64,000 bases of DNA from an uncultured Candidatus Saccharibacteria bacterium (lineage in GTDB: Bacteria > Patescibacteriota > Minisyncoccia > Portnoybacterales > UBA2143): positions 21,294-85,293 of the forward strand of contig CAYYLD010000001.1 of NCBI GenBank assembly GCA_964472495.1, given 5' to 3'. The position numbers were made by a program, and so were the translations under genes. Numbering within the stretch: position 1 is the first letter of the stretch; the number at the start of each line of letters is the position of its first letter. Below, piece after piece: positions 82 through 31,619 of this stretch. The notes below the pieces were generated by a model. The model was given only the letters and a program-made list of their open reading frames with translations. It ran no database searches and was not told the DNA's origin.

Positions 82-1785
82 ATGAAAAAGATTTCTGAAC
101 AGATAATCTCTTTTGGCCTAATTGTCTTTATTGTTTTAATCTATCTGGTTTTCTTTCTCCAGATAGTCAATCATCAGAGAATTGCCTGGGGGGTTAAAGT
201 AGCTGATTTTAACCTTAGTCGGACCAAACCCCAAACAGTCCCCAAAACCCTAAAAGACAAGTTAGATAGTTTCGCTAATCAGGAATTAAATTTTTTCTAT
301 CAAGATAAAAGTTGGTCAGTTAAATTAATTGATTTAGGTTTTCTATTTGATGAAAGAGCCATTCTTGAAGCAGCTTACCAAATTGGTCATCAAGCTAACA
401 TCTTGATTAATCTTAAAGAACAATTAATCGCTTTTATCATCGGACATCAATTAGCCCCGGTCTATCAATTAGACCAAGAGCAGTTTCAAAACAAAACCAG
501 CGAGCTTTTTAGAGATATTGAAAGACCGGCTCAGAATGCTTCCCTGGTCTTTAACCAAGAAATTGATGGTTTTTCTTTGGAACACTCAACCGAGGGAACA
601 ACCATTAAGCGAGGCCAACTATTAACTGACTTGACGGCCCGAATTAGGTCCTTTTCCAGTCAGCCAATTGAGTTGCAGCTGGTTCTTGACTATCCGACAG
701 TTGAAAATGATGAGGTTGAATCAGCTCGTCAGAAAGCTGAACAAATTTTAGCCGGACAACCTTATCAATTAACCTTTGAAGGAAAATATTGGACCATTGA
801 TAAACAAAGAATAATTGACTGGTTAAAATTTGAATCGGTTAAAGAAGAAAACTCTGGTAATCAAATTCTCGGTTGCTTTTTAGATGAGGAAAAAATTAAA
901 GATTATTTAGCCGAAATAGCCAGGACAATTGACCAGCTAACGGTTGATGCCCGCCTAGAAACCGAGGGTAATCGAGCGGTTGTCTTTTCGGCCGGTCAAG
1001 CCGGTTTTCAGGTTTATCAGGAAGAAACTATTCAAGAATTGACCAAAAATATTTTAGCCCAACCGCCAATTAGCCAAACCGAGATTATAGCCAGTATTGC
1101 CCTACCTAAAATTACTTTAGGCCAGACCAATAATTTAGGCATCAACACTTTAATTGGTCAGGGCAATTCCAATTTTGGCGGCTCACCGAGCAATCGGATT
1201 CATAATATCAAAACAGGCACGGCCAAATTCAACGGCTTAATTTTGAATCCGGGTGAGGAATTTTCCTTTAATACTCTTTTGGGTGGCAGCGGCCCGGAAC
1301 AGGGATTTCTGCCGGAACTGGTTATCAAAAAAAATAAAACTGTGCCGGAATACGGCGGCGGTCTTTGTCAGGTTTCGACAACGCTTTTCCGGGCGGCCGT
1401 CAACAGCGGTCTGGAAATTACCGAGCGCAGTCCCCATGCTTTTCCGGTAGTATATTATTCCCCCCAAGGATTTGACGCCACTGTCTACGAACCCCATCCT
1501 GACCTCCGTTTCATTAACAACACGCCCGCTCATTTTTTAATCGAAGGGGTCGTCCAAGGTAATCAATTGACTTTTAATTTTTACGGGGCTGACGACGGCC
1601 GGCGCGTCCAGATTAAAGGGCCTTATCTTTTGGAAAAAAAAGAAGACGGCTCAATGAAAACTGTCTTATACCAGGAAGTCTATCAACAAGGTGAATTAGT
1701 CCATCAGCAAACTTTTTATTCTAATTACGATTCACCGAATTTGTATCCGATTGAAGGAAGCGAAAAAGAGAGCAGAGAGAATTAA
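82..1785 (+). CDS. VanW domain-containing protein, N-terminal membrane anchor
   Basis: 567-aa ORF with N-terminal TM helix. The C-terminal region GGGLCQVSTTLFRAAVNSGLEITER matches the conserved VanW core motif. Several antisense ORFs inside it are spurious. Confidence 0.7.
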   Translation: MKKISEQIISFGLIVFIVLIYLVFFLQIVNHQRIAWGVKVADFNLSRTKPQTVPKTLKDKLDSFANQELNFFYQDKSWSVKLIDLGFLFDERAILEAAYQIGHQANILINLKEQLIAFIIGHQLAPVYQLDQEQFQNKTSELFRDIERPAQNASLVFNQEIDGFSLEHSTEGTTIKRGQLLTDLTARIRSFSSQPIELQLVLDYPTVENDEVESARQKAEQILAGQPYQLTFEGKYWTIDKQRIIDWLKFESVKEENSGNQILGCFLDEEKIKDYLAEIARTIDQLTVDARLETEGNRAVVFSAGQAGFQVYQEETIQELTKNILAQPPISQTEIIASIALPKITLGQTNNLGINTLIGQGNSNFGGSPSNRIHNIKTGTAKFNGLILNPGEEFSFNTLLGGSGPEQGFLPELVIKKNKTVPEYGGGLCQVSTTLFRAAVNSGLEITERSPHAFPVVYYSPQGFDATVYEPHPDLRFINNTPAHFLIEGVVQGNQLTFNFYGADDGRRVQIKGPYLLEKKEDGSMKTVLYQEVYQQGELVHQQTFYSNYDSPNLYPIEGSEKESREN

Positions 1786-2972
1786 GAAGACTTAGCTTTT
1801 TTAGCCGGGAAAACAAATCTGACCGCCCGCGGAATTAAAGCCAGGTCTTTTTTTATTTGTTTTTTTGAATCCTTCTCCAGTTTATCCCAATCACCTCCTT
1901 GATAATATCTTTCCCCTGCTTTAACTAAACAATTGGCTAACCAAATAGCCAGCAAGGTAATTGGCAGAGCAATTAAAATATCAATGAAATAATGTTGAGC
2001 TAAATAAACTGTTCCTAAAATAGAAAAAAACGCCCAAGGGAGAGTAAAATAAATCGTTTTCCTTCTAAATTTAAAAAGATAGTAAACAATAATGATTGTC
2101 CAAGCGACATGCATGCTGGGCATGGTCGTCACCGGAGCAACATCACCTGGGCTAGCACCAACCTCTCGATGAAAATTTATAATATACTTATTCGGTTGAT
2201 AATCTTCAACCGAGTTCTTGATAAACGGGTCTATTTCTCTACCATAAACATTATTCAAAAAAGTATTCTGGGGACTGTTAGCCGGAAAAAAGAACCAGAT
2301 GGGTAAAGCAATCATTGTCGCCAAAGTCATCGCTATAATGTACTGACTAAAAAGTTTTCTCTGGTTTATTAAATAGAAAACAAGCCAGCTGATTCCCATT
2401 AACGAGCCGAGCAAGCAAAAAGAATAGAGAAATAAAGGAGCTAAATATTTTAAAAAACCGATTGAATCCTGAGACCAAAGGAAAGGATAAAAACCAAGCA
2501 TAGATTTATCTATTCTCATCAACCAATTATCGATTAAATTGCCCCGGAGTTGAATAGCCATCAAACCAATCAGGAAGGTAATCAAACTAAAGAAGAGGGT
2601 GACAAAGAAAAGAGGTCTTAAAAAAAATAAGATAGTCATTAAAAAATTTTTAAGTTTAGACCAACTCCGAGAAAATAATTTTGGCCAAGAAAGAAGGACA
2701 TTTTTCAAAGAAACTCTTTTCTCAATAAACGGCGATAACCAATTAATCAAATAGAGATACAGTTTGAAGAAAACGTAAAAATAGATGAAAAATAAGACGA
2801 AAGAAAAATAATTTATCCCTAAGGCCACATTCTTAAAACCAATTTTAAAAGAGCCTAACCAATTTGATTGGGAAACAAAAATCAGACAAGATAGGAAGAG
2901 AATCAGCGAAAAGGCAAATAAAATATATTCTTCAATCCTGATTGACTGAAGAATATTTTTAACTTTAATCAT
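1782..2972 (-). CDS. polytopic membrane protein with PAP2-like C-terminal motifs (PSMH ... HYFIDIL)
   Basis: The track ORF 1782..3056 runs through a tRNA, so I trimmed it to the first ATG after the tRNA (2972). About 10 TM helices, about 30% GC. The C-terminus carries PSxH and H...D motifs like PAP2 lipid phosphatases/phosphotransferases. Confidence 0.5.
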   Translation of the reverse strand: MIKVKNILQSIRIEEYILFAFSLILFLSCLIFVSQSNWLGSFKIGFKNVALGINYFSFVLFFIYFYVFFKLYLYLINWLSPFIEKRVSLKNVLLSWPKLFSRSWSKLKNFLMTILFFLRPLFFVTLFFSLITFLIGLMAIQLRGNLIDNWLMRIDKSMLGFYPFLWSQDSIGFLKYLAPLFLYSFCLLGSLMGISWLVFYLINQRKLFSQYIIAMTLATMIALPIWFFFPANSPQNTFLNNVYGREIDPFIKNSVEDYQPNKYIINFHREVGASPGDVAPVTTMPSMHVAWTIIIVYYLFKFRRKTIYFTLPWAFFSILGTVYLAQHYFIDILIALPITLLAIWLANCLVKAGERYYQGGDWDKLEKDSKKQIKKDLALIPRAVRFVFPAKKAKSS

Positions 2973-2978
2973 AAGCAG

Positions 2979-3062
2979 TGCGGACGGTGGGAGTTGAACC
3001 CACATGAGATTATTCTCACCAGGTCCTAAACCTGGCGCGTCTGCCAGTTCCGCCACGTCCGC
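2979..3062 (-). tRNA. tRNA-Leu (anticodon TAG)
   Basis: Hand fold of the reverse complement: GCGGACG acceptor, anticodon stem CCAGG/CCTGG, loop TTTAGGA, long variable arm, T-loop TTCAACT. No encoded CCA. Confidence 0.8.
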
Positions 3063-3105
3063 TTCATTTCTATTCTAATCCCCCTTTGTTCAAAAATCAA
3101 CACTC

Positions 3106-3134
3106 TTGACATTTAATAATTTGTTATATATAAT
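3106..3134 (+). promoter_or_regulatory. sigma-70 consensus promoter TTGACA-17 bp-TATAAT
   Basis: Exact TTGACA at 3106-3111 and TATAAT at 3129-3134 with a 17-bp AT-rich spacer. It lies about 85 bp upstream of the ORF at 3220, which has the RBS AAAGGAG. Confidence 0.6.
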
Positions 3135-3219
3135 ATAAGCAATGGCAATTTAGGCAAGGAGGGACTATTTTTTAGGTTTCTTTAATAATAGAATAATAAC
3201 CTTTACTGAAAAGAAAGGA

Positions 3220-3741
3220 GTGATTGAAATGGGTAAGCTTAAGGATGTTTTCAAAAAAGGAGCAGGGGTAGTCGGAGATATAGCTAAAGAAGCGGCTGGT
3301 GAAGGAATCGGAAAACAAATAGGAGGCGCGGCAGGAAAAAGGGTCAGCGAACGGGTTTTTGAGGATAAAAGAGGGGAACTGCTAATCGATATCTTGGCAA
3401 TCTCAGAAAATAACGAGCATCTTCTCCGGCGACACAAAAAAGCTTCGGAAAACCATACTGAAAACCGATTTGTCAACCTTCTTTGCAAGATTCCCAAAGA
3501 GCAGCGGAAGGAAACTCTCAAGATACTCAATGGGATGGAAGATTCTCAATTCGAGCAATACTTGGACCTTCTTGAGAACAATCTCTTTACACAATTTTTC
3601 CAACGAATTGGTCATCTTCTCGGAAAAGAATTAAAAGAGCTCGACGAAGGAGCGGCTGCCGGGTTAAGAGAGTTAGCCGCTAAAATAAGGGCAAGCTGCG
3701 AGGAAGGCGGTACGAGACATAAAGGGGGTGATGCGAGATGA
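3220..3741 (+). CDS. hypothetical protein (Gly/Ala-rich N-terminus, helical C-terminus)
   Basis: 173-aa ORF with a good RBS. Its stop overlaps the next start (ATGA). No motif I recognise. GC is visibly higher than in flanking genes. Confidence 0.55.
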   Translation: MIEMGKLKDVFKKGAGVVGDIAKEAAGEGIGKQIGGAAGKRVSERVFEDKRGELLIDILAISENNEHLLRRHKKASENHTENRFVNLLCKIPKEQRKETLKILNGMEDSQFEQYLDLLENNLFTQFFQRIGHLLGKELKELDEGAAAGLRELAAKIRASCEEGGTRHKGGDAR

Positions 3742-4742
3742 AAGAATTTATAAAAGCTTTCTTTGAGGACTTTCTGCCAGCCATCTGGTTGGCCGTCTTC
3801 CAAAAAGGTCCTCAAAAGATGGATAAGTTAGTTAAGTGGGTTAAACCAAGAGCGAAAAAAATCTGGAAGTGCTTTCTAGTCCTAGCGCTCATCCTGATAA
3901 TCATCCCAATCGTAGCAGTGGACTTGGCGCTCCTGTTCAAAGCAGGCTGGATAGCTGCTTTGATTGGAACCCTTCTGGCCTTAATCTTAATGGTGCTTTT
4001 TTTCAAGCCAGTCTATCTGGGCTTAGCTGCGTTGTTGGGAATAACCTGGGAGGTTCTCTACCTGCGGATTAAAGAGGCGCCAAAAACTGGTGTAAGATAC
4101 GGTAAATTATACTTGGATATTGGACTGGGTATTCTGCTCTGGGAGCTAATTATCCTTTCTTATATATCTATTTTTCCTGTCTGGAATAATCCTCAAGCAC
4201 TTCCTGTATTAGCTTTGTTTTCTCTTCTAGCGGGTTTGATGGTTTATGTCTGGAAGTTCGAGAAAATTTTCTTCCGGAAATTCGCTTACAGATTCGTAGT
4301 TTTGGTCTTAATCGTGGAAACACTCAGCTTTTTCTTCCCGTTGACTAGCCAGGCCATCAATAAAAAAATGCCAGTTGTCGATAGAAAGATATCCAATAGC
4401 ATTAAGGCATTCGGCACTTCCCGCGAGCCACCCGTGAAAAAGGATAGCTCTAAAGAACCATCTCGCCGGCTCTCCGGAATCTTCGTTCTGCCCAAGGGCG
4501 TAAAGGTGACTAAGGACATCAATGGACATGAGTATGACTATCTGGAGGGAGAAAGAGGACATTTCCAACAACTCGGCCCAACAGGACAATTTACCGTATT
4601 GAATAAGAAGATATCTTCTCTAGTAATCGATAAGCCAACCTATACAACTGACCCAGCCATCTCTGATGGCCAAGTTAAGCTAATGGCTACCGGCGGAAAG
4701 GATGTGATAGTTGAATTAACAATCCTTCCGCCGTGTTCCTAA
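3738..4742 (+). CDS. hypothetical membrane protein (about 6 TM helices + about 130-aa soluble C-terminal domain)
   Basis: 334-aa ORF translationally coupled to the previous gene. Hydrophobic N-terminal two thirds. No recognisable motif. Confidence 0.55.
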   Translation: MKEFIKAFFEDFLPAIWLAVFQKGPQKMDKLVKWVKPRAKKIWKCFLVLALILIIIPIVAVDLALLFKAGWIAALIGTLLALILMVLFFKPVYLGLAALLGITWEVLYLRIKEAPKTGVRYGKLYLDIGLGILLWELIILSYISIFPVWNNPQALPVLALFSLLAGLMVYVWKFEKIFFRKFAYRFVVLVLIVETLSFFFPLTSQAINKKMPVVDRKISNSIKAFGTSREPPVKKDSSKEPSRRLSGIFVLPKGVKVTKDINGHEYDYLEGERGHFQQLGPTGQFTVLNKKISSLVIDKPTYTTDPAISDGQVKLMATGGKDVIVELTILPPCS

Positions 4743-4749
4743 ACGCCAA

Positions 4750-4794
4750 AAGCCAGGCAAAGCAACAAAAATTGCTTTCCTGGCTTTTTTATTT
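4750..4794. terminator. bidirectional Rho-independent terminator
   Basis: AAAGCCAGGCAAAGCAA-caaaaa-TTGCTTTCCTGGC followed by TTTTTTATTT. Reads as hairpin + U-run on both strands, between convergent genes. Confidence 0.7.
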
Positions 4795-4875
4795 ATCTTA
4801 ATTCTCTCCTTGATTGTCTATCAAATTTTACTGATTAGTCAAAATCATCGTCTCTACTCATCGCTATTATCCGGC

Positions 4876-5214
4876 TTATAGCATGCTTGTAATAAATTTC
4901 TGCGCTACATAGGCAAAGAGAGCTATGCCTATGCCGACCAAGCCCCAAATCAATGTTTTTCTGGCCTTGCCTAATTTTTCTTCATCACCAGCCGCCGTCA
5001 TCCAAACAAAACCGGCGTAGATAATCATAATGATAGCAATAACCAAAACAATGACTTGGAACCATCCGGCAATGTTTTTAATTATGCCTATTAATTCCGT
5101 CGGGCTTTCCGGGCCGACATTTGTAATTGGCGCCCCGAAGGCCATCGAGACAGCAAAAGCAAAAATAGATAAGGGAAGAAGAATGGAAGAAAAAACTTTT
5201 ATCTTTTTGTTCAC
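4876..5214 (-). CDS. T4SS-pilin-like small membrane protein (paralog 1 of 3)
   Basis: 112 aa: signal peptide, then two hydrophobic helices separated by the charged loop TAAGDEEKLGKARK. This is the architecture of TrbC/VirB2-type conjugative pilins. Confidence 0.45.
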   Translation of the reverse strand: MNKKIKVFSSILLPLSIFAFAVSMAFGAPITNVGPESPTELIGIIKNIAGWFQVIVLVIAIIMIIYAGFVWMTAAGDEEKLGKARKTLIWGLVGIGIALFAYVAQKFITSML

Positions 5215-5246: not shown

Positions 5247-5621
5247 TTAACCAGCTCCAAGAATATTTTTAATCAATTCAATCAAAGCCCGGCTGCTTAT
5301 CAATACAGCCAAACCAATTAAAGACCAGGTCAGGGCTTTCTTGGCTTTGCTCACTTTTTCCTCGTTGCCGGCCGCGGTCATAAATAAAAGAGCGGAATAA
5401 ACAATCATAATTACGGCCACAGACACACCAATATTAACAATCCAGGTAATAATGTCTCCGGCTAAATCGGTAAAGCTGGTGACATTAAGTGGATTAGGCA
5501 CTGAAGTTGGCGAAGCCGCTGGCCAATCTGCTTTAACGACAACCAATGGCAGACTAATCGTCAAAAGAGACAGAATCAAAATAATTGATGAAAGATTTTT
5601 GGGAGAGATATTTCTAAGCAT
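5247..5621 (-). CDS. T4SS-pilin-like small membrane protein (paralog 2 of 3)
   Basis: Same architecture, with loop motif MTAAGNEEKVSKAKK. The track start at 5651 is a non-ATG codon; the first ATG (5621) gives a typical signal peptide MLRNISPKNLSSIILIL. Confidence 0.45.
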   Translation of the reverse strand: MLRNISPKNLSSIILILSLLTISLPLVVVKADWPAASPTSVPNPLNVTSFTDLAGDIITWIVNIGVSVAVIMIVYSALLFMTAAGNEEKVSKAKKALTWSLIGLAVLISSRALIELIKNILGAG

Positions 5622-5641
5622 ATATTTTATAAACAAATCTT

Positions 5642-6076
5642 CTAAGGACAACTAGGGAATACGTTCCAAGCGCCACTGAAGGCTCCGGTAGTCAAAGTTT
5701 TAACTAAAGTGTCAATCAACAGCCAGCCGGTAAAAATGATGACCAAGCCGATAACGGTGTTAGCAAAAATACTTTTGGCCAAAGTAACTCTTCCTTCACT
5801 GCCACCGGAAACAAGGAAGATAATCCCAGCAGCTGCAAATAGAAGAATAGCCGCTGGGATAGCTAAATTAAAACTGATAAAATTGATGATATTGCTGGCC
5901 AAATGCCATAAATCACAGAGATTACATTTCTCACTGGCATCTAGCTGGCCATCACCATTAATATCCCGGCCACAAGGGACTAATGGTTCAGTGATAAAGC
6001 CAGCATAGGCCAAATTAGCGACAAACAATCCTAACAAGAGCAAAGAACCGATTAAAATTTTATGAAAGGTTCCCAT
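5642..6076 (-). CDS. T4SS-pilin-like small membrane protein (paralog 3 of 3, Cys-rich N-terminal segment)
   Basis: 144 aa. Signal peptide, a 4-Cys segment CGRDINGDGQLDASEKCNLCDLWH, then two TM helices with a SGGSEGR loop. Confidence 0.4.
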   Translation of the reverse strand: MGTFHKILIGSLLLLGLFVANLAYAGFITEPLVPCGRDINGDGQLDASEKCNLCDLWHLASNIINFISFNLAIPAAILLFAAAGIIFLVSGGSEGRVTLAKSIFANTVIGLVIIFTGWLLIDTLVKTLTTGAFSGAWNVFPSCP

Positions 6077-14481: not shown

Positions 14482-15741
14482 ATGAAACAAAAAAATCTAA
14501 TCATCAGTTTAATCGTTCTGGTAGCCGTTATTGTTATCGGCGCCTTGTTGTACAAACCAGCTTCGGAAACGCCTCCTCCTGCCCCACCAGTTGATGACAG
14601 CGGAGCGACTGACCAAGGAGTTGCCAGTGTTATTGAAGCTAATAATCAATTTGCCTTAGAGTTCTACCAGCAAATTAAAGATGGGGAAGAAAATATCTTT
14701 TTCTCGCCTTATAGCATCTCGACCGCTTTGGCCATGACTTATGAAGGGGCCCGCGGCCAAACCGCTCAAGAAATGCAGTCAGTTTTCCATTTTCCGGAAG
14801 AGGATAGTATTCGCCGACCGGCCATGGCCAAGATTTACAACCAAATCAACCAAGAAGACAAGGAATACGAACTTTATACGGCTAATGCTTTGTGGGCTCA
14901 AGAAGATTATTCTTTCTTAGACGAGTATATTAATTTGATTGACCAATATTATGGCGGCCGGGTGACCAATCTTGATTTTATTAAGGAAACCGAGAAGTCA
15001 AGGAAGACAATTAATGACTGGGTCGCTCAACAGACCAAAGACAAAATACTTGACTTGATTCCAGCTGGCGTCCTTAATGAACTAACTCGTCTTGTTTTAA
15101 CTAACGCTATTTACTTTAAGGAACAATGGCTAATCCAATTTGATGAAGAGAATACGACCGAGGAAGATTTTAGGGTCAGTCCGGAGAAAACAATTAAGGT
15201 GCCGATGATGAGTTTAACCGATGGAGAAATAGAATTTAATTATCTGGAAACGGAAAAATTACAAATCTTGGAAATGCCCTATGATGGAGAAGAATTATCT
15301 ATGTTGGTTTTGCTCCCTCAAGAGGATAGCTTAGTCACCTTGGAAGAATCGCTCAACCTGGATAATCTTGCCCAATGGCGAGAGATGCTTAGTCAACAGC
15401 CGGTTAACGTCTTTATGCCCAAATTTACTTTTGAGACCAAATATTTCTTGAACCAAGACCTCCAGGAAATGGGCATGCCGACTGCTTTCTCCATGCAGGC
15501 CGATTTTTCCGGCATGGACGGGACCAAAGATCTTTTTATCAGCAAGGTCATCCATCAGGCCTTTATTGAGGTAAATGAAGAAGGAACCGAGGCGGCGGCG
15601 GCCACGGCGGTGGTTATAGAATTAAAATCAGTCGGGCCTTCCGTAGCCGTTTTCCGAGCCGACCATCCTTTCATTTTCTTAATCCAAGACAACCAGTCAG
15701 GCAACATTTTATTTTTAGGCCGGGTAGTTAATCCCAGTTAA
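14482..15741 (+). CDS. serpin (serine protease inhibitor) with N-terminal membrane anchor and Pro-rich linker
   Basis: FFSPYSISTALAMTYEGARGQTAQEM matches the conserved serpin N-terminal core, and the C-terminal FRADHPFIFLIQDNQSGNILFLGRVVNPS matches the serpin signature. A reactive-centre-loop-like EGTEAAAATAVV lies upstream of it. Confidence 0.8.
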   Translation: MKQKNLIISLIVLVAVIVIGALLYKPASETPPPAPPVDDSGATDQGVASVIEANNQFALEFYQQIKDGEENIFFSPYSISTALAMTYEGARGQTAQEMQSVFHFPEEDSIRRPAMAKIYNQINQEDKEYELYTANALWAQEDYSFLDEYINLIDQYYGGRVTNLDFIKETEKSRKTINDWVAQQTKDKILDLIPAGVLNELTRLVLTNAIYFKEQWLIQFDEENTTEEDFRVSPEKTIKVPMMSLTDGEIEFNYLETEKLQILEMPYDGEELSMLVLLPQEDSLVTLEESLNLDNLAQWREMLSQQPVNVFMPKFTFETKYFLNQDLQEMGMPTAFSMQADFSGMDGTKDLFISKVIHQAFIEVNEEGTEAAAATAVVIELKSVGPSVAVFRADHPFIFLIQDNQSGNILFLGRVVNPS

Positions 15742-17246: not shown

Positions 17247-18260
17247 ATGGCTAAAAAACCAACCATTGAAGAAATCAGAAAGTACCTTAACGAGTATGAT
17301 CCACTTGGTCTGAGGGGAGCGTCAATTGACTTAATTGGCGCTCACAACCATATTATTTACCGATTAGCCAGGGCTGGCAAATCCTTTTGTCTGCGGATGA
17401 TAAATCCGGAAAGCTATCGGGCCGGCGAGTGGCTGACTATCCCTGAAGAATTTACTATCCTTCACTACCTGAAACTCACCGGCTTAGGGCCAATACCCTA
17501 TTTTGTTGACCCGGAACGATTCAGACTCCCATTAACTATCCAAGAGTTCGTCTCGGAAATCACCTACTTTAATAATTTGAAGCCGTTCAACGAAGAGCAT
17601 CTGAAGGCAGCCGCCAAGGCGATCGCCTTACTAAACTCCCTAAACATTGACCCGATCAGATTCCCTTTCCGAAAAGGTTTTACCCGCTACTCTTATCTGA
17701 CCAGCTTGGAAACCTGGCGAGAACGCCTGGCGATAATTAAAAAGTCCGAACAGAAAGATATTCTGGAATGGGTAGACAAACTCAAAGAAGTAGTCAAGCA
17801 GGCAAAGCCGATTTTGGAAGGATTTGAACCTCTCTTGAGAGAGAGTGGTTCGCTTTTTAACTTCGACGGCGCTCACTGCGGAAATACTTTTTTGCGAGAA
17901 AAGTCAGGCAAAGTTGTTTTCCTTGACTGGCAGAAAGTAAGCTACGGAGATCCCAGTTTTACCCTGGCCCGCTTCTTAACCTCTATTGGAAAAAAAGGGG
18001 AGATTCCGGACGGAGCTAAAGAGTTGATGATTGAGGCCTATACTCAAACGGCGGCCTATCATAACTTGCTTAATAGTCATCCCAAATTAGCAGTAAATTT
18101 TGAGAAGCTGGTTGACCAGCGCCTCTTTGAACGCCAGATAGCTGACCTCATCTGGGTGGTCTGGGACTATACCAAACAAGTCAAAACCGAACCAGTTGAG
18201 GAAGCAACTAGCGTAGTTGCTCGCTACCAAAGAGTTATCGAGATGCTGAGACAATACTGA
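17247..18260 (+). CDS. phosphotransferase-family kinase (APH/choline-kinase-like fold)
   Basis: Catalytic-loop-like FDGAHCGNTF and the LDWQKVSYGDPSFTLA (DWE..GDP) motif typical of aminoglycoside/choline/homoserine kinase-type phosphotransferases. Strong RBS AAAGGAGGG. Confidence 0.6.
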   Translation: MAKKPTIEEIRKYLNEYDPLGLRGASIDLIGAHNHIIYRLARAGKSFCLRMINPESYRAGEWLTIPEEFTILHYLKLTGLGPIPYFVDPERFRLPLTIQEFVSEITYFNNLKPFNEEHLKAAAKAIALLNSLNIDPIRFPFRKGFTRYSYLTSLETWRERLAIIKKSEQKDILEWVDKLKEVVKQAKPILEGFEPLLRESGSLFNFDGAHCGNTFLREKSGKVVFLDWQKVSYGDPSFTLARFLTSIGKKGEIPDGAKELMIEAYTQTAAYHNLLNSHPKLAVNFEKLVDQRLFERQIADLIWVVWDYTKQVKTEPVEEATSVVARYQRVIEMLRQY

Positions 18261-18287
18261 GACACTCTCAATTTTTTCTGGAAAACA

Positions 18288-18324
18288 AACGGTTGCCGGG
18301 AAACAAACCGACAACCGTTTTTTA
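18288..18324 (+). terminator. Rho-independent terminator
   Basis: AAACGGTTGCCGG-gaaacaaa-CCGACAACCGT with one mismatch, followed by TTTTTTATTT. Confidence 0.65.
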
Positions 18325-18397
18325 TTTGACCCCGCATCAGAGAAATCTCGGGGCGGGGTTTGACCAAAACGCTTAAAAATGGTAATTTAGGCATTAA

Positions 18398-18488
<91 letters not shown>

Positions 18489-23028: not shown

Positions 23029-24099
23029 ATGGCTCAAAAATCTCCGGTGGTTGAAGTAGTTAAAAAAATAAGCCCGGCGGTCGTCAGTATTACCATCAGC
23101 AAGGACCTCCCTAAAATCAGAAAGTACTATATCCAGCCTTTTGACGAATTATTTGGTCCTTATGGCCAACCAGTCCCTCAATACCGGCAAGAAGGACGCC
23201 AAAAGGTTAAGATTGGCGGCGGCAGCGGCTTTTTTGTTTCGCCAGACGGCGTTATTTTAACCAATCGCCATGTTATCGTCTCGCCTAATGTTGATTACAC
23301 TATTACGACCACTGATGAAAAAGAATATCAGGCCGAAATTTTAGCCCGCGACCCGGTTAATGACGTAGCCATTATTAAAGTCAAGAATGCCAAGGGCAGA
23401 AAATTCCCTATCTTAGAATTAGGCGATTCTGCCAAGGCGGAATTAGGTCAAGGCGTCATTGCCATCGGCAATGCCTTGGGCACTTTTCGTAATACGGTTT
23501 CAACCGGGGTTGTTTCCGGTCTCAGTCGTTTTATCACCGCCCACGACGGCCTTTCGGGCCAAGCTGCTTCCTTGCGGGGATTAATTCAAACTGACGCGGC
23601 TATCAATCCAGGTAATTCCGGTGGTCCTTTAGTTGACTTAGACGGTAAAGTTATTGCCATTAATGTAGCCATCGTCATAGGCGCTCAAAATATTGGTTTT
23701 GCTATCCCGGTTAATAACGCCAAGAAAGATTTGGATGACTTGAAAAAACATGGTCGGATTATTCAGCCATTCTTAGGTGTTCGTTATATTTTAATCAACA
23801 AAGCTCTTCAAGAATCTTTCCGCCAAAGATTTAACATCGATATACCGATTGATTACGGCGCTTTAATTATCCGAGAGCCAGGCAGCGGAGAGCCAGCTGT
23901 CGTTCCCAACAGTCCAGCCAATAAAGCTGGTTTAATGGAACGCGATATTATTTTAGAATTCAATAAGGTCAAGATAACTGATAAAAATCCTCTTCAGGAG
24001 TTGATTCATAAGGCCAAGCCGGGTGACACGATTGATATTAAAATTTTGCGGGGGGATAAATTAGGAACGTTAAAATTAAAATTGGAAGAGAGGAAGTGA
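23029..24099 (+). CDS. htrA: HtrA/DegP-family serine protease with C-terminal PDZ domain
   Basis: Catalytic region GNSGGPLVDLDGKVIAINVA, upstream His and Asp motifs, and a PDZ-like C-terminus. 356 aa. Confidence 0.85.
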   Translation: MAQKSPVVEVVKKISPAVVSITISKDLPKIRKYYIQPFDELFGPYGQPVPQYRQEGRQKVKIGGGSGFFVSPDGVILTNRHVIVSPNVDYTITTTDEKEYQAEILARDPVNDVAIIKVKNAKGRKFPILELGDSAKAELGQGVIAIGNALGTFRNTVSTGVVSGLSRFITAHDGLSGQAASLRGLIQTDAAINPGNSGGPLVDLDGKVIAINVAIVIGAQNIGFAIPVNNAKKDLDDLKKHGRIIQPFLGVRYILINKALQESFRQRFNIDIPIDYGALIIREPGSGEPAVVPNSPANKAGLMERDIILEFNKVKITDKNPLQELIHKAKPGDTIDIKILRGDKLGTLKLKLEERK

Positions 24100-25571: not shown

Positions 25572-26777
25572 ATGAAAAAAGTTAAAAAAACAAAGGGAGG
25601 AAAAAAACTAAATATTCCCCAGTCAAAAGAAACAGTCAGCGAACGAGAGGCGATTCTCACCTCTGTCGGCGATCCTGTAATGGGATTGGCGGTCGTTGAC
25701 AAAGATGGGAGAATAATACATGTCAATGCAGGCTTTGGAGCGCTGACTGGCTGGAAAAAAGAAGAAGTGATTGGCAAATCTTTGGTTAAAGTTATCCCCA
25801 GAGAAGATGAAAATAGGAATAGAATACCATTCCGAGAAAGAGTCCTCTCCGAGGTATTGTCAGGAAAAGTAATAACTACTATAGCTGTTAATGTTGCGGC
25901 TAATATTGAAAAACTGCCTACTTTTTATTACGTCCGAAAAGACAAAAGCAGATTTCCGGCCAGCAGTGTTATAAGCCCCGTGTTGTTTAAGGGAAAGATA
26001 ACCGGAGCCGCAGAAGTTTTTTACGACATTACTAAAGAAAAAGAATTAGAGCGAATCAGGATAGATTTTTTGTCACTGGCCTCTCATCAATTGCGCACTC
26101 CGCTTTCCGGCACCAAGTGGTTGATTGAAACGATGTATAAAGGACTCGTAGGCGAGATGACAAAAAAACAAAAAGAGTATCTTGATGATATTTATAAAGT
26201 TAATGAGCAGATGATTAAGCTTGTTTCCGATATCTTGAGCACGTTGCGGCTGGAGAGCGAGGCGGCGCTAATAAAAAAAGAGAAAGTTTCAGTATTATCT
26301 CTTTTTAAAGATATTTTAACTGCAGTGACGCCGGCAGCCAAAGAGAGGAGAGTATTATTACAAAGCCCATTAAATCATCGGAGACTTATTATTGAGATAG
26401 ACCCAGAAATATTGAAATCAATTCTTAGATCTTTTCTTTCTAACGCTATTAATTATTCAAGGCCGGGTCAAAAAGTGATTTTGGATGTTAAAAAAGAATC
26501 AGGGGCGGTAGTATTTTTTGTTCGCGATTTCGGGATCGGTATCCCCCAAAAGGAGCAGAAAAGAATGTTTGAACGATTTTATCGCGCTTCTAATGCAAGG
26601 GCTTTTAAACCAACTGGCACAGGTCTCGGTCTTAACATTGCCAGAGTGCTGGCTGAAAAGATTGGCGCAGAAATTTCATTTGAATCCAAAGAGAATAAAG
26701 GTTCTACCTTTTATTTACGCATCCCCAAAAGGTCGAACAGGGGTGCCAAAGCGAAAAGCCGTAAGGCTAAAAAGTAA
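25572..26777 (+). CDS. cytoplasmic sensor histidine kinase (PAS + HisKA + HATPase_c)
   Basis: PAS-like N-terminus, H-box LASHQLRTPLSGTKWLIE, N/G-boxes (NAINYS, DFGIGIP, GTGLGL). No TM segments. Confidence 0.85.
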   Translation: MKKVKKTKGGKKLNIPQSKETVSEREAILTSVGDPVMGLAVVDKDGRIIHVNAGFGALTGWKKEEVIGKSLVKVIPREDENRNRIPFRERVLSEVLSGKVITTIAVNVAANIEKLPTFYYVRKDKSRFPASSVISPVLFKGKITGAAEVFYDITKEKELERIRIDFLSLASHQLRTPLSGTKWLIETMYKGLVGEMTKKQKEYLDDIYKVNEQMIKLVSDILSTLRLESEAALIKKEKVSVLSLFKDILTAVTPAAKERRVLLQSPLNHRRLIIEIDPEILKSILRSFLSNAINYSRPGQKVILDVKKESGAVVFFVRDFGIGIPQKEQKRMFERFYRASNARAFKPTGTGLGLNIARVLAEKIGAEISFESKENKGSTFYLRIPKRSNRGAKAKSRKAKK

Positions 26778-26795
26778 AAAATCTAATAAACTAAA

Positions 26796-27188
26796 ATGAG
26801 TCATATATTAATTGTTGAAGACGAAGATTTTTTAATTCGGACACTTGAAGATAATTTAGTCACCGAGGGCTATACGGTTGATATTGCCAAAGATGGAGAG
26901 GAGGCGGTTGAGAAAATAGGAAAAAAGAAGCCAGACCTTATTCTGCTTGACATTTTGATGCCCAAAAAGGATGGCTTTTATGTGCTGGGGGAGACAAAAA
27001 AGAATCCTGAATGGAAATTGATTCCAGTGATTGTTTTGTCGAATCTTGGAGAAGATACGTTAATCAAGCGGGCTCTGGGGATGGGCGCTGATGACTATTT
27101 TGTAAAATCACAACACCCGATTCAAGAAATAATTGAAAAAGCGAAAGATTATCTTGAAGGCAGAAAAGCGGCCAAGCCCCGTCTTTAA
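26796..27188 (+). CDS. single-domain response regulator (CheY-like receiver)
   Basis: ILIVEDEDF, phospho-acceptor region LILLDILMPKKDGF, then VIVLSNLGE...GADDYFVK. 130 aa with no output domain. Confidence 0.85.
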   Translation: MSHILIVEDEDFLIRTLEDNLVTEGYTVDIAKDGEEAVEKIGKKKPDLILLDILMPKKDGFYVLGETKKNPEWKLIPVIVLSNLGEDTLIKRALGMGADDYFVKSQHPIQEIIEKAKDYLEGRKAAKPRL

Positions 27189-27199
27189 CAGCCGATAAA

Positions 27200-28876
27200 A
27201 TGAAACTTCAGCATATATGTTTCTCACTATTGATCCTAGCATTGGTTCTGTTTTTGCTTCCGATTGTCGTTGTAGCCGATCCGCCAGGCAGCGCAGTTAA
27301 ATTTGTCATTTTAAAACCAGATGACAGCATAGTTGGCACGCCAGTAACTGTTACTATTGAAGCCCAAAAAAGCAATAATCAGGTTGATACGGATTATCAA
27401 AGCGATGTAACTCTTGTGACCAACGGCTCGGCCACGGGCGCCGGTCTGGTGGACATTGTCAACGGCATAGGCACGATTGAAATCAATGACGAAGTGGCTG
27501 AAACCGTCAATCTTTCGCTTTCTGACACAAAAGAAACCGGACTGGATGTGAGTTCTACCCAAGAGGTTGATTTTGAAGCCGCTGAAGAAGCAGTTTGGAA
27601 TCAAACAGATTTTTGGTTCAGAGATGACGACGGAGACGAGGCTACTGCCAGCGGGTTTGGAGCTGAAAACGTAAGTCAGAATACAAATATTATCAATGTG
27701 CCGCAGGGGACAAACTTGCGTCTGCGTTTTGGCATCAGGGTTACTGGCTTTAGCGGTACCCTTATCCCTTGTCTTGAGTTTAAGCAGGGCGCTGATTGTG
27801 CTACCGGCAATTGGACAGTTATTACTCCAACGAGTGATACTTTTAATCTTTATTTATCAGACAATTTTGATGATGGCGACGCTACCACCAAGCAAATCAC
27901 AAACGGTTCTTTTGTCGCCGGCCAAATTCTGGAGTCAACCAATCCGGCTTCTTCTTTAGACCTGGCTAAGAACAAAAACACGGAATACGAATGGTCAATA
28001 GAAGTTGCCGGGGATGTCCCAGTCAGCACAACTTACAGTTTTAGGGTTAGTAATAATGGGACTGCCTTTGATAACTACGATGTGTGTCCGTCTCTGACGA
28101 CTCAATCGGGGTCAGAACCAGAGCCAGAACCAGAGCCGACTCCATCTGGCGGAAGCAAAGTAAGACCTACCACGGTAACATTTTCCGGAAGAGCTTTTCC
28201 GAACGCCAAAATATTGGTGTTAGATAAAGATGCAAGGTTAAGAAAGGCAATTAGCCAAGATTTTGTAGCTGACGAAGAAGGAAAATTTAGCGTGAGCTTC
28301 ATTGGCATAATGCAAAGTTGGCATAGTTTTGGTCTTTTGATAAAAGACAAAGAAAATCGGACCACTCAGACGAAATTTTTTAATATTGATACTTTGGCCA
28401 ATGACCTGGTGGTAAAAGATATTCTGGTACCACCAACCGTAGGTTTTACTCAAGGGGTAGTTACGCGAGGACGCAACGCCGTCATTGTCGGCTACGCTGC
28501 CCCAGAAAATGACGTTGAAATAGAAATAGGAGATATCAAGAAAGAAATTAAAGCAGAAAAAGATGGTTCATATAAAGCAGAAGTTAATACAGGAATGCTT
28601 GAATTTGACCAGCATAGAGTACGCGTAAAACAAATTGATCCGCAAGAAAAAAGGGAAAGCGATTTTTCAGTAACGAAAACTTTAGTGGTTTCGCGTCTTG
28701 CTTCGCCAAAAACAGATTTGTCCGGCGATGGCCGGGTAGATATTAGAGATTGGAGCATGTTTCTTTCAAGGTGGGAGTCAAAAGACAAAAGTCAGAAAAA
28801 AATAATTGATTTCAACGATGACGGGGAAATAAATATTTCAGATTTTAGTATATTTATTCGTGCTATTAAAAAATAA
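27200..28876 (+). CDS. secreted multidomain protein with C-terminal dockerin (type-I-like) module
   Basis: Signal peptide, an EPEPEPEPTP linker, and a C-terminal duplicated Ca-binding segment DLSGDGRVDIRDWSMF / DFNDDGEINISDFSIF that matches the dockerin DxDxDGxVxxxD pattern. Confidence 0.65.
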   Translation: MKLQHICFSLLILALVLFLLPIVVVADPPGSAVKFVILKPDDSIVGTPVTVTIEAQKSNNQVDTDYQSDVTLVTNGSATGAGLVDIVNGIGTIEINDEVAETVNLSLSDTKETGLDVSSTQEVDFEAAEEAVWNQTDFWFRDDDGDEATASGFGAENVSQNTNIINVPQGTNLRLRFGIRVTGFSGTLIPCLEFKQGADCATGNWTVITPTSDTFNLYLSDNFDDGDATTKQITNGSFVAGQILESTNPASSLDLAKNKNTEYEWSIEVAGDVPVSTTYSFRVSNNGTAFDNYDVCPSLTTQSGSEPEPEPEPTPSGGSKVRPTTVTFSGRAFPNAKILVLDKDARLRKAISQDFVADEEGKFSVSFIGIMQSWHSFGLLIKDKENRTTQTKFFNIDTLANDLVVKDILVPPTVGFTQGVVTRGRNAVIVGYAAPENDVEIEIGDIKKEIKAEKDGSYKAEVNTGMLEFDQHRVRVKQIDPQEKRESDFSVTKTLVVSRLASPKTDLSGDGRVDIRDWSMFLSRWESKDKSQKKIIDFNDDGEINISDFSIFIRAIKK

Positions 28877-28885
28877 AATGAAAAA

Positions 28886-30622
28886 ATGAAATATCAATTT
28901 AAAACAATTATAGCCATATTGGCTGGGGTCATTGCTTGGGGTATTTTTTCTTCGGCGCAGGCCGCTACACTTTCTTTAACACCTATTAGTTCCGAGATTG
29001 GAATCGGAGAAAAAATGACGATTGAGATTAGGATTGATAGCGAAGGGGAAAGCTTTAACGCAGCCCAGGCAGTAATTCGTTTCCCTAAAGATACGCTTGA
29101 GGTGACTGCATTAGACAAAGCAGAATCCGTATTCAGCTTTTGGCTTGAAGAGCCAAATTTTTCAAATACGGACGGAGTTGTATCATTTATCGGCGGCACA
29201 CCGTCCGGAGTTTCCGGGGGCGCTGTCAGAGTTCTGAAGATAGAATTTCTGGCCAAAGGAACTGGTAGCGGGACACTTTCTTTTGTAGAAGCCGCTGTCA
29301 CGGCGGCTGACGGAAGCGGAACCAATATACTATCAGAGATAAATGATGCAGTGATTATGGTAGTCCCTCAAAGAGTTATTCCAAAAGTTCCAGAATCCCA
29401 GCAAAAAATTCCGGAGCCCGAACAAATTGTCCGGAAACCCGCGCCTTCAGAGAAATTGCCTTCAAGCCCCGTTCTTAAAATTTCACTCTATCCTGAAGAA
29501 ACCCGTTGGTATAATCTGGTGGCGCAGTTTACGGTAAGTTGGGATTTACCGCTTGATATTTCTGGCGTGAGCACGGCGCTCAACAAATACCCAAACTCTA
29601 TCCCGCCCGGACGATCCGAAGGACTTTTTGATAATAAAAGCTTCGCGGCGCTCGGAGACGGCATTTGGTACCTTCATGTTCGTTTTCAAAACAATCTTGG
29701 CTGGGGACCGACTGCGCATCACCGTTTGGCCGTTGATACCCAACCCCCACTTGGTTTTGAGCTTACCGTCGTTGAAGGCGAGGCGACTGATAATCCAACC
29801 CCTACGTTTCAATTCAAGACCAGCGACGCTCTCTCTGGTCTTCGAGAGTACCAGGTAAGAATTGGCGACGGAGATCTGATAAAAATTCCCGCAGCGGAGT
29901 TTAATGGGAGCTTTAAGTTACCATTGCAATCGCCGGGTAAGCGGCGGATTACCGTAAAAGCGGTTGATCAGGCCGATAATGGCATTGAAGATGACGTAAT
30001 GCTGGAAACTATTCCTATTGCGTCACCGACCATAAGTTTTGTTACCAGGGAATTATTCTCTGATGAGGAAAGAGGCTTAACTATCAAAGGAACGGCCTTG
30101 CCGGGTGTTAATATGCTGCTGGCTGTTCTTCGGCAAGGCGCGCTTGTTGCTGAAAGCACAATTCGCGCTGATGAAAAAGGCAACTGGGAATTTACTTTTG
30201 ACCAGCCTTTTAGGAATGGACGGTATATTTTAACTGCCCAGAGTCAAGATGAGCGAGGCGCCTTGAGCTTAACAGTGGAATCTCCAGAAGTGCGGGTCAA
30301 AAGCAAGCCGATTATCCAGATTGGGTTTATCCAGCTGGGGAAAGGCGGCGCGGCCCTGCTCTTGCTTTTCATACTGATAGTAGGGTTTGGCACAGGAGCT
30401 TGGTTTTATAAAAAACGGCAGGAGAAATTAGCCCTGCGACTTTTGGTTGTTAAAACCGACATGGCCAAGGTCTTTAAACTTATTCAGGACGATATAGAAA
30501 AATTACAAAAAGCCATTGGAACTCCAATCGAGGCGGACGACGAATTTATGATGAAAAGACTGCAGGAAAATATCAAGAAAATGGAAGGATATCTCAAAAA
30601 AGAAATAGAGAAATTAGAATAG
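28886..30622 (+). CDS. cohesin-domain-like surface protein, C-terminal TM anchor and cytoplasmic coiled coil
   Basis: Signal peptide. An N-terminal beta-rich module (ATLSLTPISSEIGIGEKMTIEIRID...AQAVIRFPKDTLEV...VRVLKIEFLAKGTGSGTLSF) resembles cohesin domains. Pro-rich linker, further Ig-like modules, TM helix AALLLLFILIVGFGTGAW, then KR-rich coiled coil. Confidence 0.5.
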   Translation: MKYQFKTIIAILAGVIAWGIFSSAQAATLSLTPISSEIGIGEKMTIEIRIDSEGESFNAAQAVIRFPKDTLEVTALDKAESVFSFWLEEPNFSNTDGVVSFIGGTPSGVSGGAVRVLKIEFLAKGTGSGTLSFVEAAVTAADGSGTNILSEINDAVIMVVPQRVIPKVPESQQKIPEPEQIVRKPAPSEKLPSSPVLKISLYPEETRWYNLVAQFTVSWDLPLDISGVSTALNKYPNSIPPGRSEGLFDNKSFAALGDGIWYLHVRFQNNLGWGPTAHHRLAVDTQPPLGFELTVVEGEATDNPTPTFQFKTSDALSGLREYQVRIGDGDLIKIPAAEFNGSFKLPLQSPGKRRITVKAVDQADNGIEDDVMLETIPIASPTISFVTRELFSDEERGLTIKGTALPGVNMLLAVLRQGALVAESTIRADEKGNWEFTFDQPFRNGRYILTAQSQDERGALSLTVESPEVRVKSKPIIQIGFIQLGKGGAALLLLFILIVGFGTGAWFYKKRQEKLALRLLVVKTDMAKVFKLIQDDIEKLQKAIGTPIEADDEFMMKRLQENIKKMEGYLKKEIEKLE

Positions 30623-30873: not shown

Positions 30874-31086
30874 TCAAGGTGAACTGATTTTAATACTTTT
30901 TATTCGGCCACCCCGCTTCTTCATCTTGCCTTGAATCCGGCGAAATTTAATATGACGACATTTAACATTGTTAATTCCCCCGCAATTAGGACAATTTACT
31001 AAAAAACTAGGGTTTCCTTCTCCTTTTCTCTTGACTCTGGAGATATCAATTTCATTACCGCAAGACCGACATCTTATCCAGTCCAT
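30874..31086 (-). CDS. zinc-ribbon miniprotein (CxxC-x22-CxxC), paralog C
   Basis: 70 aa MDWIRCRSCGNE...VNCPNCGG. GGGGAGG RBS. Basic C-terminal tail. Confidence 0.55.
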   Translation of the reverse strand: MDWIRCRSCGNEIDISRVKRKGEGNPSFLVNCPNCGGINNVKCRHIKFRRIQGKMKKRGGRIKSIKISSP

Positions 31087-31408: not shown

Positions 31409-31619
31409 ACCTCTCCTCCTTTCCGGGTTTATAAAAAAGAACAAATTAAATGGCTTTACTGACAAGACATTTTTTTCTTAAAATTTCGCTCAAAAAATAG
31501 GTGGTTGTCCGCAAGTTAACGCCAAAGCGTTAACCAATATAGGATTCCCTGTCTATGATGATTAATCTGAAATCTTAAAGAAAAATCTTGGACAGTAAAG
31601 CCATCCTTATTATACCGTC

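Follow-up and report, generated by a model that had tools for sequence, protein, structure and literature searches.

A two-gene unit beside tRNA-Leu(TAG), contained in a 64,000-nucleotide stretch of contig CAYYLD010000001.1 (the window, to which coordinates refer unless a locus is named), encodes two undescribed protein families, here called ORF1 and ORF2 (ORF, open reading frame), in an ultra-small bacterium of the candidate phyla radiation (CPR)/Patescibacteria. The best reading of this pair, held with a confidence slightly short of even and resting on sequence comparison, is that of a two-gene envelope unit in which a cytoplasmic partner, ORF1, would be combined with a membrane anchor, ORF2, exposing an exchangeable outer domain. 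In the proposed mechanism, ORF2 would be located in the membrane with a cytoplasmic N-terminus and with its C-terminal beta domain of ~90 amino acids (aa) outside the cell, where this domain would serve as a binding or recognition module, and ORF1 would remain in the cytoplasm, docked on the N-terminal face of ORF2, as an inner scaffold or adaptor. The pair would represent one of two alternative cargoes of a slot composed of tRNA-Leu, promoter, leader element, cargo, terminator and pilin array. The other cargo, which would be functionally comparable, would consist of an SPFH/Band_7 scaffold and a different multi-pass anchor with the same outer domain, and one cargo would replace the other through recombination, with the conserved leader and the shared C-terminal domain as the two ends. 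Related loci and their proteins are designated by L and P numbers, respectively; the two genes and the two parts of ORF2 are the following (nt, nucleotides):

3229-3741, plus strand: ORF1, 170 aa, starting at ATG 3229, with the ribosome-binding site GGAG at 3217-3220, 8 nt upstream
3738-4742, plus strand: ORF2, 334 aa, whose ATG overlaps the TGA of ORF1 by 4 nt (ATGA), with its own ribosome-binding site GGGGGTGA
3738-4466, plus strand: ORF2 residues 1-243, comprising a basic amphipathic N-terminal segment, six hydrophobic segments (at about residues 47-66, 72-90, 91-106, 128-146, 155-169 and 185-200) and a basic linker
4467-4742, plus strand: ORF2 residues 244-334 and the stop codon, the beta-rich C-terminal domain of ~90 aa

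The two genes are translationally coupled through the ATGA overlap, as an earlier note on this stretch had proposed, and with a promoter and a terminator of their own they form the self-contained two-gene unit described there. The start of ORF1 is most likely ATG 3229; the alternative GTG 3220 would give the 173 aa stated in that note, and the gene callers of public assemblies use 170 aa. Described earlier as soluble and Gly/Ala-rich, ORF1 has neither a signal peptide nor a transmembrane (TM) segment, and its Gly/Ala-rich region covers the N-terminal ~45 aa. The protein contains a conserved helical core, FEDKRGELL...NHTENRFVNLLCKIPK...LLEN..QFFQRI, and its homologues are P0005, P0006 and a partial sequence in L010. 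ORF2, in turn, agrees with the expected 334 aa, about six TM helices and a C-terminal domain, with six hydrophobic segments and a beta-rich region of ~90 aa being recognized. Both genes are under purifying selection, as indicated by ratios of nonsynonymous to synonymous substitution (dN/dS) against L009 of 0.15 for ORF1 and 0.17 for ORF2.

It had also been stated that neither protein could be placed in any family, and this holds, since no Pfam, NCBIfam, PHROG or PADLOC family is matched significantly by ORF1 or ORF2. For ORF1, there is no Pfam or NCBIfam match at E ≤ 1, sigma-factor domains included, and the PDB-sequence profile search gives chance-level matches only. The membrane domain of ORF2 has no Pfam, NCBIfam or PDB-sequence match (the PDB profile of 20 sequences stays at chance level), and PDB-sequence profile searches with the C-terminal domain, based on 4 and 40 sequences, likewise return only chance-level matches. 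A word-indexed homologue search retrieved 3-4 relatives only, making both genes appear orphan-like; this picture was corrected by an exhaustive HMMER search, in which the ORF2 profile recovers 125 proteins at E ≤ 1e-3. When separate profiles are used, the polytopic membrane domain is found in 81 representative clusters, the C-terminal beta domain in 48, and both together in 4. Judged from these profiles, ORF2 is a mosaic of a new polytopic membrane domain and a new beta domain of ~90 aa.

The polytopic domain is recognizable by the signature LLWEL, PVWNNP and TLSFFFP.T...D, and its nearly invariant residues are G77, E136 (in LLWEL), P147 (in PVWNNP), P201 and D215. It is followed by C-terminal tails of various kinds, 100-600 aa in length, which include Dockerin_1 (3 clusters) and the PA-IL lectin (1 cluster by Pfam and several more by eye). 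The beta domain follows the pattern R.LSGIF.LP..G...QL..P.KF..VN...YT.G.A...V.L...G.K..V.V.I.P and is carried also by small single-TM proteins (15 clusters), by P0095 in tandem and, most frequently, by a 4-5-TM anchor of the P0003 type; to judge from these carriers, it is an independently mobile domain, for which we infer a role in binding or adhesion. At the very end of ORF2, residues 329-334 (4722-4739) read I-(L/I)-P-P-x-S and do not vary, to the last residue, among the four closest homologues. It is conceivable that this extreme C-terminus is a recognition motif, for example for a PDZ protease; the window encodes an HtrA-like Trypsin_2-PDZ protein (23029-24099).

The association of the two families extends well beyond the window. 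A tightly spaced small gene is found ahead of every ORF2-type gene with readable context, namely in the window, L009, L008, L063, L064, L059, L060 and L065, and a gene of the ORF1 family lies directly upstream of the ORF2-type gene in at least six loci, namely the window, L009, L008, L064, L063 and L059. The proteins encoded upstream make up a homology network: ORF1, P0006, the N-terminus of P0066 and a 191-aa protein of L064 are related (1e-6 to 1e-14), and P0006 has a C-terminal extension with homology to the partners in L059 and L063 (1e-13 to 1e-37; hhalign 97.7%). P0066 itself, a protein of 501 aa, is a natural fusion in which residues 28-171 are ORF1-like and residues 224-403 correspond to the ORF2 membrane domain; it matches the ORF1 profile with 6.7e-14 in hmmsearch and 95.8% in hhalign, and the motifs TENRF.NL and END..FF are held in common. 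Pairing and fusion together support a physical or functional coupling of ORF1 and ORF2, and a physical contact between the two proteins is suggested. The fusion, moreover, indicates that ORF1 sits at the N-terminal side of the membrane domain, a side that should be cytoplasmic because ORF1 lacks a signal sequence; ORF1 is predicted to be the cytoplasmic partner of ORF2.

Some further loci of the two families present features of their own. In L060 (1603-8731), both types of pair occur together, a Band_7 protein (626 aa) with a 314-aa multi-TM protein and a 211-aa protein with the ORF2-type P0030, which carries dockerin repeats. In an unscored comparison by eye, the 314-aa protein and the ORF2-type P0048 have similar C-terminal domains, which may represent a second outer domain common to both anchor types. 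A polytopic protein of ~530-550 aa follows ORF2-type genes at two unrelated loci (L059 1954-3615 and L065 6298-7884; mutual E 1e-73). It gives a weak EpsG/Wzy-like match (E 3e-5, under the Pfam cutoff), and in L065 a GT2 glycosyltransferase gene stands in between, a context suggestive of a connection with envelope glycan synthesis. From a metagenome scan with ORF1, one partial locus was obtained: in L010 (703-2150) a partial ORF1 homologue (45% identity) is located at the end of a contig with 50.5% G+C content (GC), directly after an rve-type transposase. This adjacency is the sole sign of an association with mobile elements.

Regarding the topology of ORF2, several features of its relatives are informative. 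Over the 81 homologues, the N-terminal segment and loops 107-127 and 170-184 show an excess of K/R residues, and the conserved WNNP loop is uncharged; this charge profile fits an N-in/C-out arrangement if the 72-106 stretch crosses the membrane once. Among the single-TM carriers of the C-terminal domain, 11 of 15 have 2-5 K/R in the short N-terminal stretch ahead of the TM segment, a signal-anchor-like feature that agrees with an outside location of the domain. Dockerin and PA-IL lectin are typically extracellular domains, and their presence as tails in paralogues agrees with the same location of the C-terminus. Collectively, these features would fit the N-in/C-out topology adopted in the proposed mechanism.

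The genomic position of the pair is conserved, and the elements that define the slot in the window are given below:

1782-2972, minus strand: PAP2-family gene, the conserved left neighbour, GC 33.6%
2978-3062, minus strand: tRNA-Leu(TAG), called by ARAGORN (Rfam tRNA 57 bits), the left border of the slot
3106-3134, plus strand: sigma-70-type consensus promoter, TTGACA at 3106-3111, a 17-nt spacer and TATAAT at 3129-3134, with 12/12 matches
3157-3183, plus strand: 5' leader element AGGAGGG(AC), ~22 nt past the -10 hexamer, with a predicted hairpin at 3158-3183
4748-4788 (stem), extending to 4800, both strands: hairpin terminator of 17 bp, with a T-run at 4789-4800 on the plus strand and TTTT on the minus strand
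4876-5214, 5247-5651 and 5642-6076, minus strand: three VirB2-like pilin genes, Pfam T4SS_pilin PF18895, E 2e-6 to 5e-13

In relatives down to ~24% protein identity, the slot follows the order PAP2, tRNA-Leu(TAG), promoter, pair, terminator, three VirB2-like pilin genes, SBP and gyrA, with a methyltransferase gene between SBP and gyrA that is absent in L056. The order tRNA-Leu(TAG)-pair-pilins-SBP-(methyltransferase)-gyrA recurs in the L001-L004 contigs, L008, L056 and L066, and several metagenome contigs carry identical copies with the same neighbours. Both genes are present in the slot of L009 (82% nt identity). In L008 (~67% nt identity), where synonymous sites are saturated relative to the window, tRNA-Leu(TAG) is accompanied by a longer ORF1 (P0006, 46-55% identity), the ORF2 orthologue P0007 (37%) and three pilin genes. 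L056, from Candidatus Paceibacterota, has PAP2, tRNA-Leu(TAG), two coupled genes of which the second encodes P0066, three pilin genes, SBP, gyrA and Lactamase_B_3. The tRNA, whose transcription points away from the module, is located at the equivalent place in L001, L007, L008, L009, L056 and L066. On the right, the pilin array is convergent with the module and constitutes the constant neighbour of the slot, being found also in L001-L004, L007, L008, L056 and L066; the assignment of the three pilin genes is supported by PF18895 scores of 42.7, 49.4 and 28.2 bits, all over the gathering cutoff of 26.6. A functional link between the pair and the pilins may lie behind this arrangement.

The cargo of the slot, on the other hand, is exchanged between close relatives. 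L007 matches the window at 89.7% identity from position 4469 to the right and at 77% over 2805-3188. The segment between these blocks encodes a Band_7/SPFH protein and another type of multi-TM protein, P0003, whose C-terminal domain is that of ORF2 (82% aa identity). L009 and L007 are 96.7% identical through tRNA, promoter and leader, their cargo is unrelated, and from the C-terminal domain onward they are again 85.8% identical. The right-hand breakpoint, at window position 4469, coincides with the domain boundary of ORF2 at residue ~244. In the more distant L066, the same tRNA, promoter, pilins, SBP and methyltransferase enclose a Band_7 protein (25.7 bits, above the gathering score) and a P0003-type protein, so that Band_7 together with a multi-TM protein ending in a beta domain is known from L007, L066 and L060. 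Among the relatives recovered (L001-L009, L056 and L066, a small sample), no empty slot was found and only the type of cargo varies.

These observations modify the earlier view of the pair as a horizontally acquired accessory module with tRNA adjacency as its footprint. The adjacency is real, and the cargo swap between L009 and L007 places the pair in an exchangeable pool of accessory genes; a recent insertion, however, is contradicted by the presence of the pair in the same slot in L009, L008 and L056, the other cargo occupying it in L007 and L066. As for the footprint, proximity to a tRNA is unremarkable in a window with 15 tRNAs in 64 kb, and the tRNA, which is encoded on the minus strand, faces the module with its 5' (promoter) side, integrases being known to use the tRNA 3' end. 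No direct repeats are present in 2700-5000, no integrase gene lies beside the module, and searches of IMG/VR, GenBank phages and PLSDB plasmids gave no match to either protein. The pair is not a recent tRNA-targeted island but a long-resident, chromosomal one.

The expression signals are retained independently of the cargo. The exact TTGACA-17-TATAAT promoter that had been noticed beside the tRNA is indeed exact and rare, with two copies in 64 kb; allowing for up to one mismatch, 4 matches are obtained against 0.45 expected, a number reached in 0/100 shuffles. Neither hexamer varies among the window, L009, L007 and L008, and exact copies are found also in L066 and L059, the promoter thus being kept at loci with differing cargo. 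The terminator is bidirectional, as described earlier, its 17-bp hairpin leading into a U-run when read on the plus strand and into UUUU when read on the minus strand; its predicted free energy is -22.7 kcal/mol (z -5.85 on the plus strand, z -3.55 in the minus-strand context). It is common to the module and the convergent pilin gene and is kept in L009, L007 and L008, one bulged position becoming paired in L008. With these signals, the unit is probably strongly transcribed. The other exact promoter of the window, at 31609-31637 on the minus strand, precedes a ~140-nt leader and a 136-aa ORF (31055-31465) and lacks AGGAGGG.

Between promoter and ORF1, the leader contains an AGGAGGG that is invariant in the leader alignment and is not followed by a start codon. 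The combination TATAAT-N(12-32)-AGGAGGG occurs once in the window and, across 66 loci, only in slot or family loci and at one unrelated true ribosome-binding site. In the relatives, the element is located at the following positions:

L009, ~380-405
L007, ~383-410
L008, ~866-900
L066, ~493-512
L059, ~115-138

In 6/6 leaders, AGGAGGG forms the 5' arm of the minimum-free-energy hairpin, with modest individual z-scores (-0.7 to -2.2), and the pyrimidine-rich 3' arm varies in position. RNAalifold on the six leaders, aligned with MAFFT, gave no consensus structure, the variable 3' arms being left unaligned, so that the support for the hairpin consists of single-sequence folds. The element has no Rfam entry, and the tRNA is the sole known RNA that Rfam reports in 2900-4900. 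It could be a Shine-Dalgarno-like stabilizer of the 5' end of the mRNA or an attenuator.

Base composition and codon usage give different pictures of the pair. The module had been regarded, by eye, as markedly richer in GC than the flanking membrane-protein gene, but its value of 0.439 vs a window mean of 0.412 corresponds to the 87.6th percentile of equal-sized windows (~+1.1 standard deviations), with gene z-scores of +1.3 for ORF1 and +0.7 for ORF2. It is the PAP2 gene, with 0.336 and z -2.5, and not the module, that is the GC outlier. The synonymous codon usage of the PAP2 gene is normal, indicating that its low GC probably derives from its amino-acid make-up; the apparent contrast can thus be traced to a Phe/Leu/Ile-rich neighbour and not to a foreign insert.

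The idea of a compositionally foreign module survives only in its synonymous codon choice, in which ORF1 and ORF2 are the most deviant of 60 window genes (z -5.7 and -7.1 vs expectation). Strand bias exists in the window and was considered as a cause, but the two genes remain the most deviant against a background of plus-strand genes only. L009 shows the same bias, and so do the L008 orthologues, with saturation of their synonymous sites (pS 0.82), and the L007 cargo, which is non-homologous, whereas the pilin, SBP and methyltransferase genes of the L007 and L008 loci have host-like usage. The cargoes compared were:

window, 3229-4742
L008, 937-2741
L007, 445-2573
L056, 8001-9506

Their codon deviations from the host background correlate with one another at r 0.5-0.7, the non-homologous ones included, vs r ≤ 0.14 with the conforming flank genes of L007 and L008; the flank genes of the Paceibacterota locus L056 give r 0.37-0.42 with the window and L008 cargoes. 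In this common "dialect", ATC/ATA, TTC, GCA/GCG, CCA, GGA and CTC are more frequent and ATT, TTT, GCC, CCG, GGC and TTA less frequent. The codon bias is a property of the slot cargo and not of a recent arrival. High expression as its cause is unsupported by L19, the one ribosomal protein gene available in the window, which has typical usage. The dialect may stem either from an exchangeable gene pool that the cargoes share or from selection of some kind, and the cargo swap favours the gene pool.

Several observations weigh against the envelope-anchor reading as a whole. Six hydrophobic segments would ordinarily correspond to N-in/C-in, and for a C-out topology residues 72-106 would have to span the membrane in a single pass. 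In ORF2, a basic linker follows the last TM segment, and the linkers of the single-TM proteins with the C-terminal domain are basic as well (K+R 50 on the C side vs 32 on the N side), so that the positive-inside evidence is not clean. The C-terminal domain has no Pfam match even at E ≤ 10, dockerin and PA-IL included. AlphaFold2 models are of low confidence, the shallow alignments containing 3-4 sequences: ORF1 is all-alpha at a predicted local distance difference test score (pLDDT) of 47.5, ORF2 reaches 42.5, and the six strands of the C-terminal domain are modelled at pLDDT 30-48. High expression is suggested by the sequence signals, and L19 does not share the codon bias of the module. Finally, pilin genes are not found around the family members in L059, L060 and L065 but only in syntenic relatives, and the adjacency may be mere conserved gene order.

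Taking into account the near-invariant acidic and proline residues in or beside the membrane segments (E136, the PVWNNP loop and D215, over 20-81 homologues), the pair could instead be an envelope glycopolymer enzyme or transporter, in which the ORF2 membrane domain would be catalytic or a translocator (ligase, polymerase or flippase-like), the C-terminal domain would target the substrate and ORF1 would be an accessory subunit. The EpsG/Wzy-like protein of ~530-550 aa (E 3e-5, sub-cutoff) and the GT2 glycosyltransferase that follow family members, a weak Wzy_C match in one member (E 9e-4), the PAP2 lipid phosphatase as conserved left neighbour and the lectin and dockerin tails, which fit carbohydrate targeting, are all in line with such a function. 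We consider it unlikely, though deserving of some weight, as no significant match to an enzyme or transporter family was obtained in Pfam, NCBIfam or PDB sequences and the fact that sister strains have an unrelated anchor plus SPFH in place of the entire TM domain is more in keeping with an anchor or scaffold than with an essential catalytic role. That replacement also bears on a second explanation, according to which the pair is a non-homologous analogue of the SPFH-NfeD microdomain or stress system, with ORF1 as scaffold and ORF2 as the NfeD-like component, and the membrane would be organized or protected without any external ligand. The slot holds either ORF1 plus ORF2 or a Band_7 protein and a multi-TM protein that terminates in the same beta domain, both types of pair occur in one L060 cluster, and the architecture of a TM anchor with a small C-terminal beta domain and a coupled partner presumably resembles that of short NfeD proteins. 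Its probability nevertheless appears low, because ORF1 gives no SPFH signal (no Pfam match at E ≤ 1; BLASTP against the L007 Band_7 protein, E 0.87) and no NfeD (PF01957) match is found in ORF2, P0003, the isolated C-terminal domain or 123 scanned family members.

The proximity of the pilin genes raises the question of an accessory of a VirB2-like pilus or type IV secretion system (T4SS), either as a very divergent VirB6-like subunit or as a pilus adhesin with a chaperone or adaptor. In the window clade, L008, L056 and L066, the pair converges on an array of three T4SS_pilin genes, with which it has its terminator in common, and ORF2 is polytopic, with at least five membrane segments. In Patescibacteria, 441 VirB2 arrays of 2-11 pilin genes have been described with no PrgB-like adhesin detected, and VirB6 is scarce or absent in some classes, "suggesting extreme sequence divergence" (PMC12102498), findings that count in favour of this possibility. 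Against it, neither ORF2 nor the 123 family members match TrbL/VirB6, no VirB4 is encoded among the window ORFs of at least 550 aa, the available flanks of L059, L060 and L065 contain no pilin gene, and the pilin-adjacent cases, all syntenic, amount to one evolutionary observation; a role of this kind is improbable. Still less probable, and largely refuted, is the proposal of the earlier note, a horizontally acquired toxin/immunity, abortive-infection or other defence-type pair beside a tRNA. A self-contained two-gene unit with atypical codon usage, cargo that differs between close relatives, the ORF1 homologue beside the rve-type transposase in L010 and a very weak SLATT_1 match (E 0.62) would be compatible with it. 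On the opposite side, no PADLOC or PHROG match and no relatives in IMG/VR, phages or plasmids were found, integrase and att repeats are lacking and the module lies on the tRNA 5' side, orthologues occupy the same slot across deep divergence, and the domains fused in the family (dockerin and PA-IL lectin) are of the surface type and not nucleases, NTPases or pore toxins; together with the neighbours, they point to the envelope or surface.

The envelope unit favoured here can be compared with several known systems. Like SPFH-NfeD operons, it consists of two adjacent, coupled genes with one promoter and one terminator and has an anchor ending in a small beta-rich domain, and the slot of sister genomes holds a true Band_7 protein and a multi-TM protein with the same C-terminal domain; on the other hand, ORF1 gives no SPFH match, ORF2 and its C-terminal domain give no sequence match to PF01957, and the probable location of this domain is extracellular. 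Surface proteins that bear dockerin or PA-IL (LecA-like) domains resemble the unit in that homologues of the ORF2 membrane domain carry such tails and that the C-terminal domain of the window likewise moves between anchors. In contrast to those proteins, the window domain matches neither family and is held by a multi-pass anchor with a cytoplasmic partner instead of a signal peptide, lipobox or sortase signal. With VirB6/TrbL proteins, ORF2 shares a polytopic structure, a variable C-terminal extension and a place beside VirB2-like pilin genes, but there is no sequence match and no virB4 nearby, and the orientation suggested for ORF2 differs from that of Agrobacterium tumefaciens VirB6, which has a periplasmic N-terminus. 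SigI-RsgI bicistronic sensors consist of a gene for a cytoplasmic partner followed by one for a membrane protein with variable extracellular carbohydrate-binding domains. The gene order, the helical cytoplasmic partner and the outer binding domains that vary across paralogues are similar; ORF1 has no sigma-factor domains, however, ORF2 is multi-pass rather than single-pass, and the promoter is an invariant one of housekeeping type.

The Patescibacteria that have been brought into culture grow attached to other cells, and for most membrane proteins of the group there is no annotation. The locus defines three linked, undescribed modules, namely the ORF1 partner family, the polytopic anchor domain of 81 clusters and the mobile beta domain of 48 clusters. 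The natural fusion supports the view that the ORF1 and anchor modules work together, and in the conserved expression slot their pair takes turns with one based on SPFH. Provided that the outer domains serve in binding, the slot would be a compact candidate for strain-level variation in surface specificity. A more far-reaching version, which we regard as rather unlikely, would see in some Patescibacteria a dedicated, strongly promoted "surface-cassette slot" beside the VirB2-like array, in which scaffold-anchor pairs of either type, with interchangeable extracellular binding domains, are swapped by recombination from the promoter-leader to the shared C-terminal domain and form a module that sets the specificity of host or partner recognition, possibly the missing T4SS/pilus adhesin; if this were true, the codon dialect of the cargo would result from its circulation as a shared gene pool. 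Should the outer domains prove to have another function, a plausible-looking "defence island" call would still have been corrected.

The window represents core chromosome, with gyrA, ftsH, IF-2, ftsZ/ftsA, topA, nrdD, hisS, relA/spoT, comEC, dprA and RtcB among its genes; the ORFs of at least 550 aa, among which virB4 is absent, encode VanW, GyrA, FtsH, NrdD, TopA, a dockerin protein and an Ig-like protein. The assignment to Patescibacteria is in agreement with the NCBI annotation of the fused homologue P0066 (Candidatus Paceibacterota bacterium) and with a contig scan using the adjacent pilin, which retrieved 45 loci, all from Patescibacteria metagenome-assembled genomes, with the pair in none of them. 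A contig profile scan with the ORF2 alignment found nothing.

A few minor features of the window complete the description. The end of tRNA-Leu lies only 6 nt upstream of the PAP2 ATG on the same strand, and a hairpin followed by a T-run, resembling a terminator, is present at 2925-2956, within the first ~50 nt of the PAP2 gene; either the PAP2 start codon is mis-set or a tRNA terminator overlaps the coding sequence. ARAGORN makes 16 calls on the 64 kb, the 15 tRNAs and one doubtful tmRNA. The latter (17997-18487, 491 nt) overlaps an APH-like phosphotransferase ORF (17247-18260) and tRNA-Ser(CGA) (18398-18487) and is probably false. The APH-like gene is itself codon-atypical (z -4.9). A second codon-atypical block at 25572-30622 encodes a PAS histidine kinase, a response regulator, a 558-aa dockerin-containing protein and a 578-aa Ig-like (Big_13) protein, with z-scores of -3.2 to -4.6 for 3/4 genes and typical usage in the response regulator; it may be another surface-related accessory cluster. 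Also encoded in the window are a serpin of full length (E 8e-125) and, together with its archease partner, an RtcB RNA ligase (14482-15741; 46755-48595).

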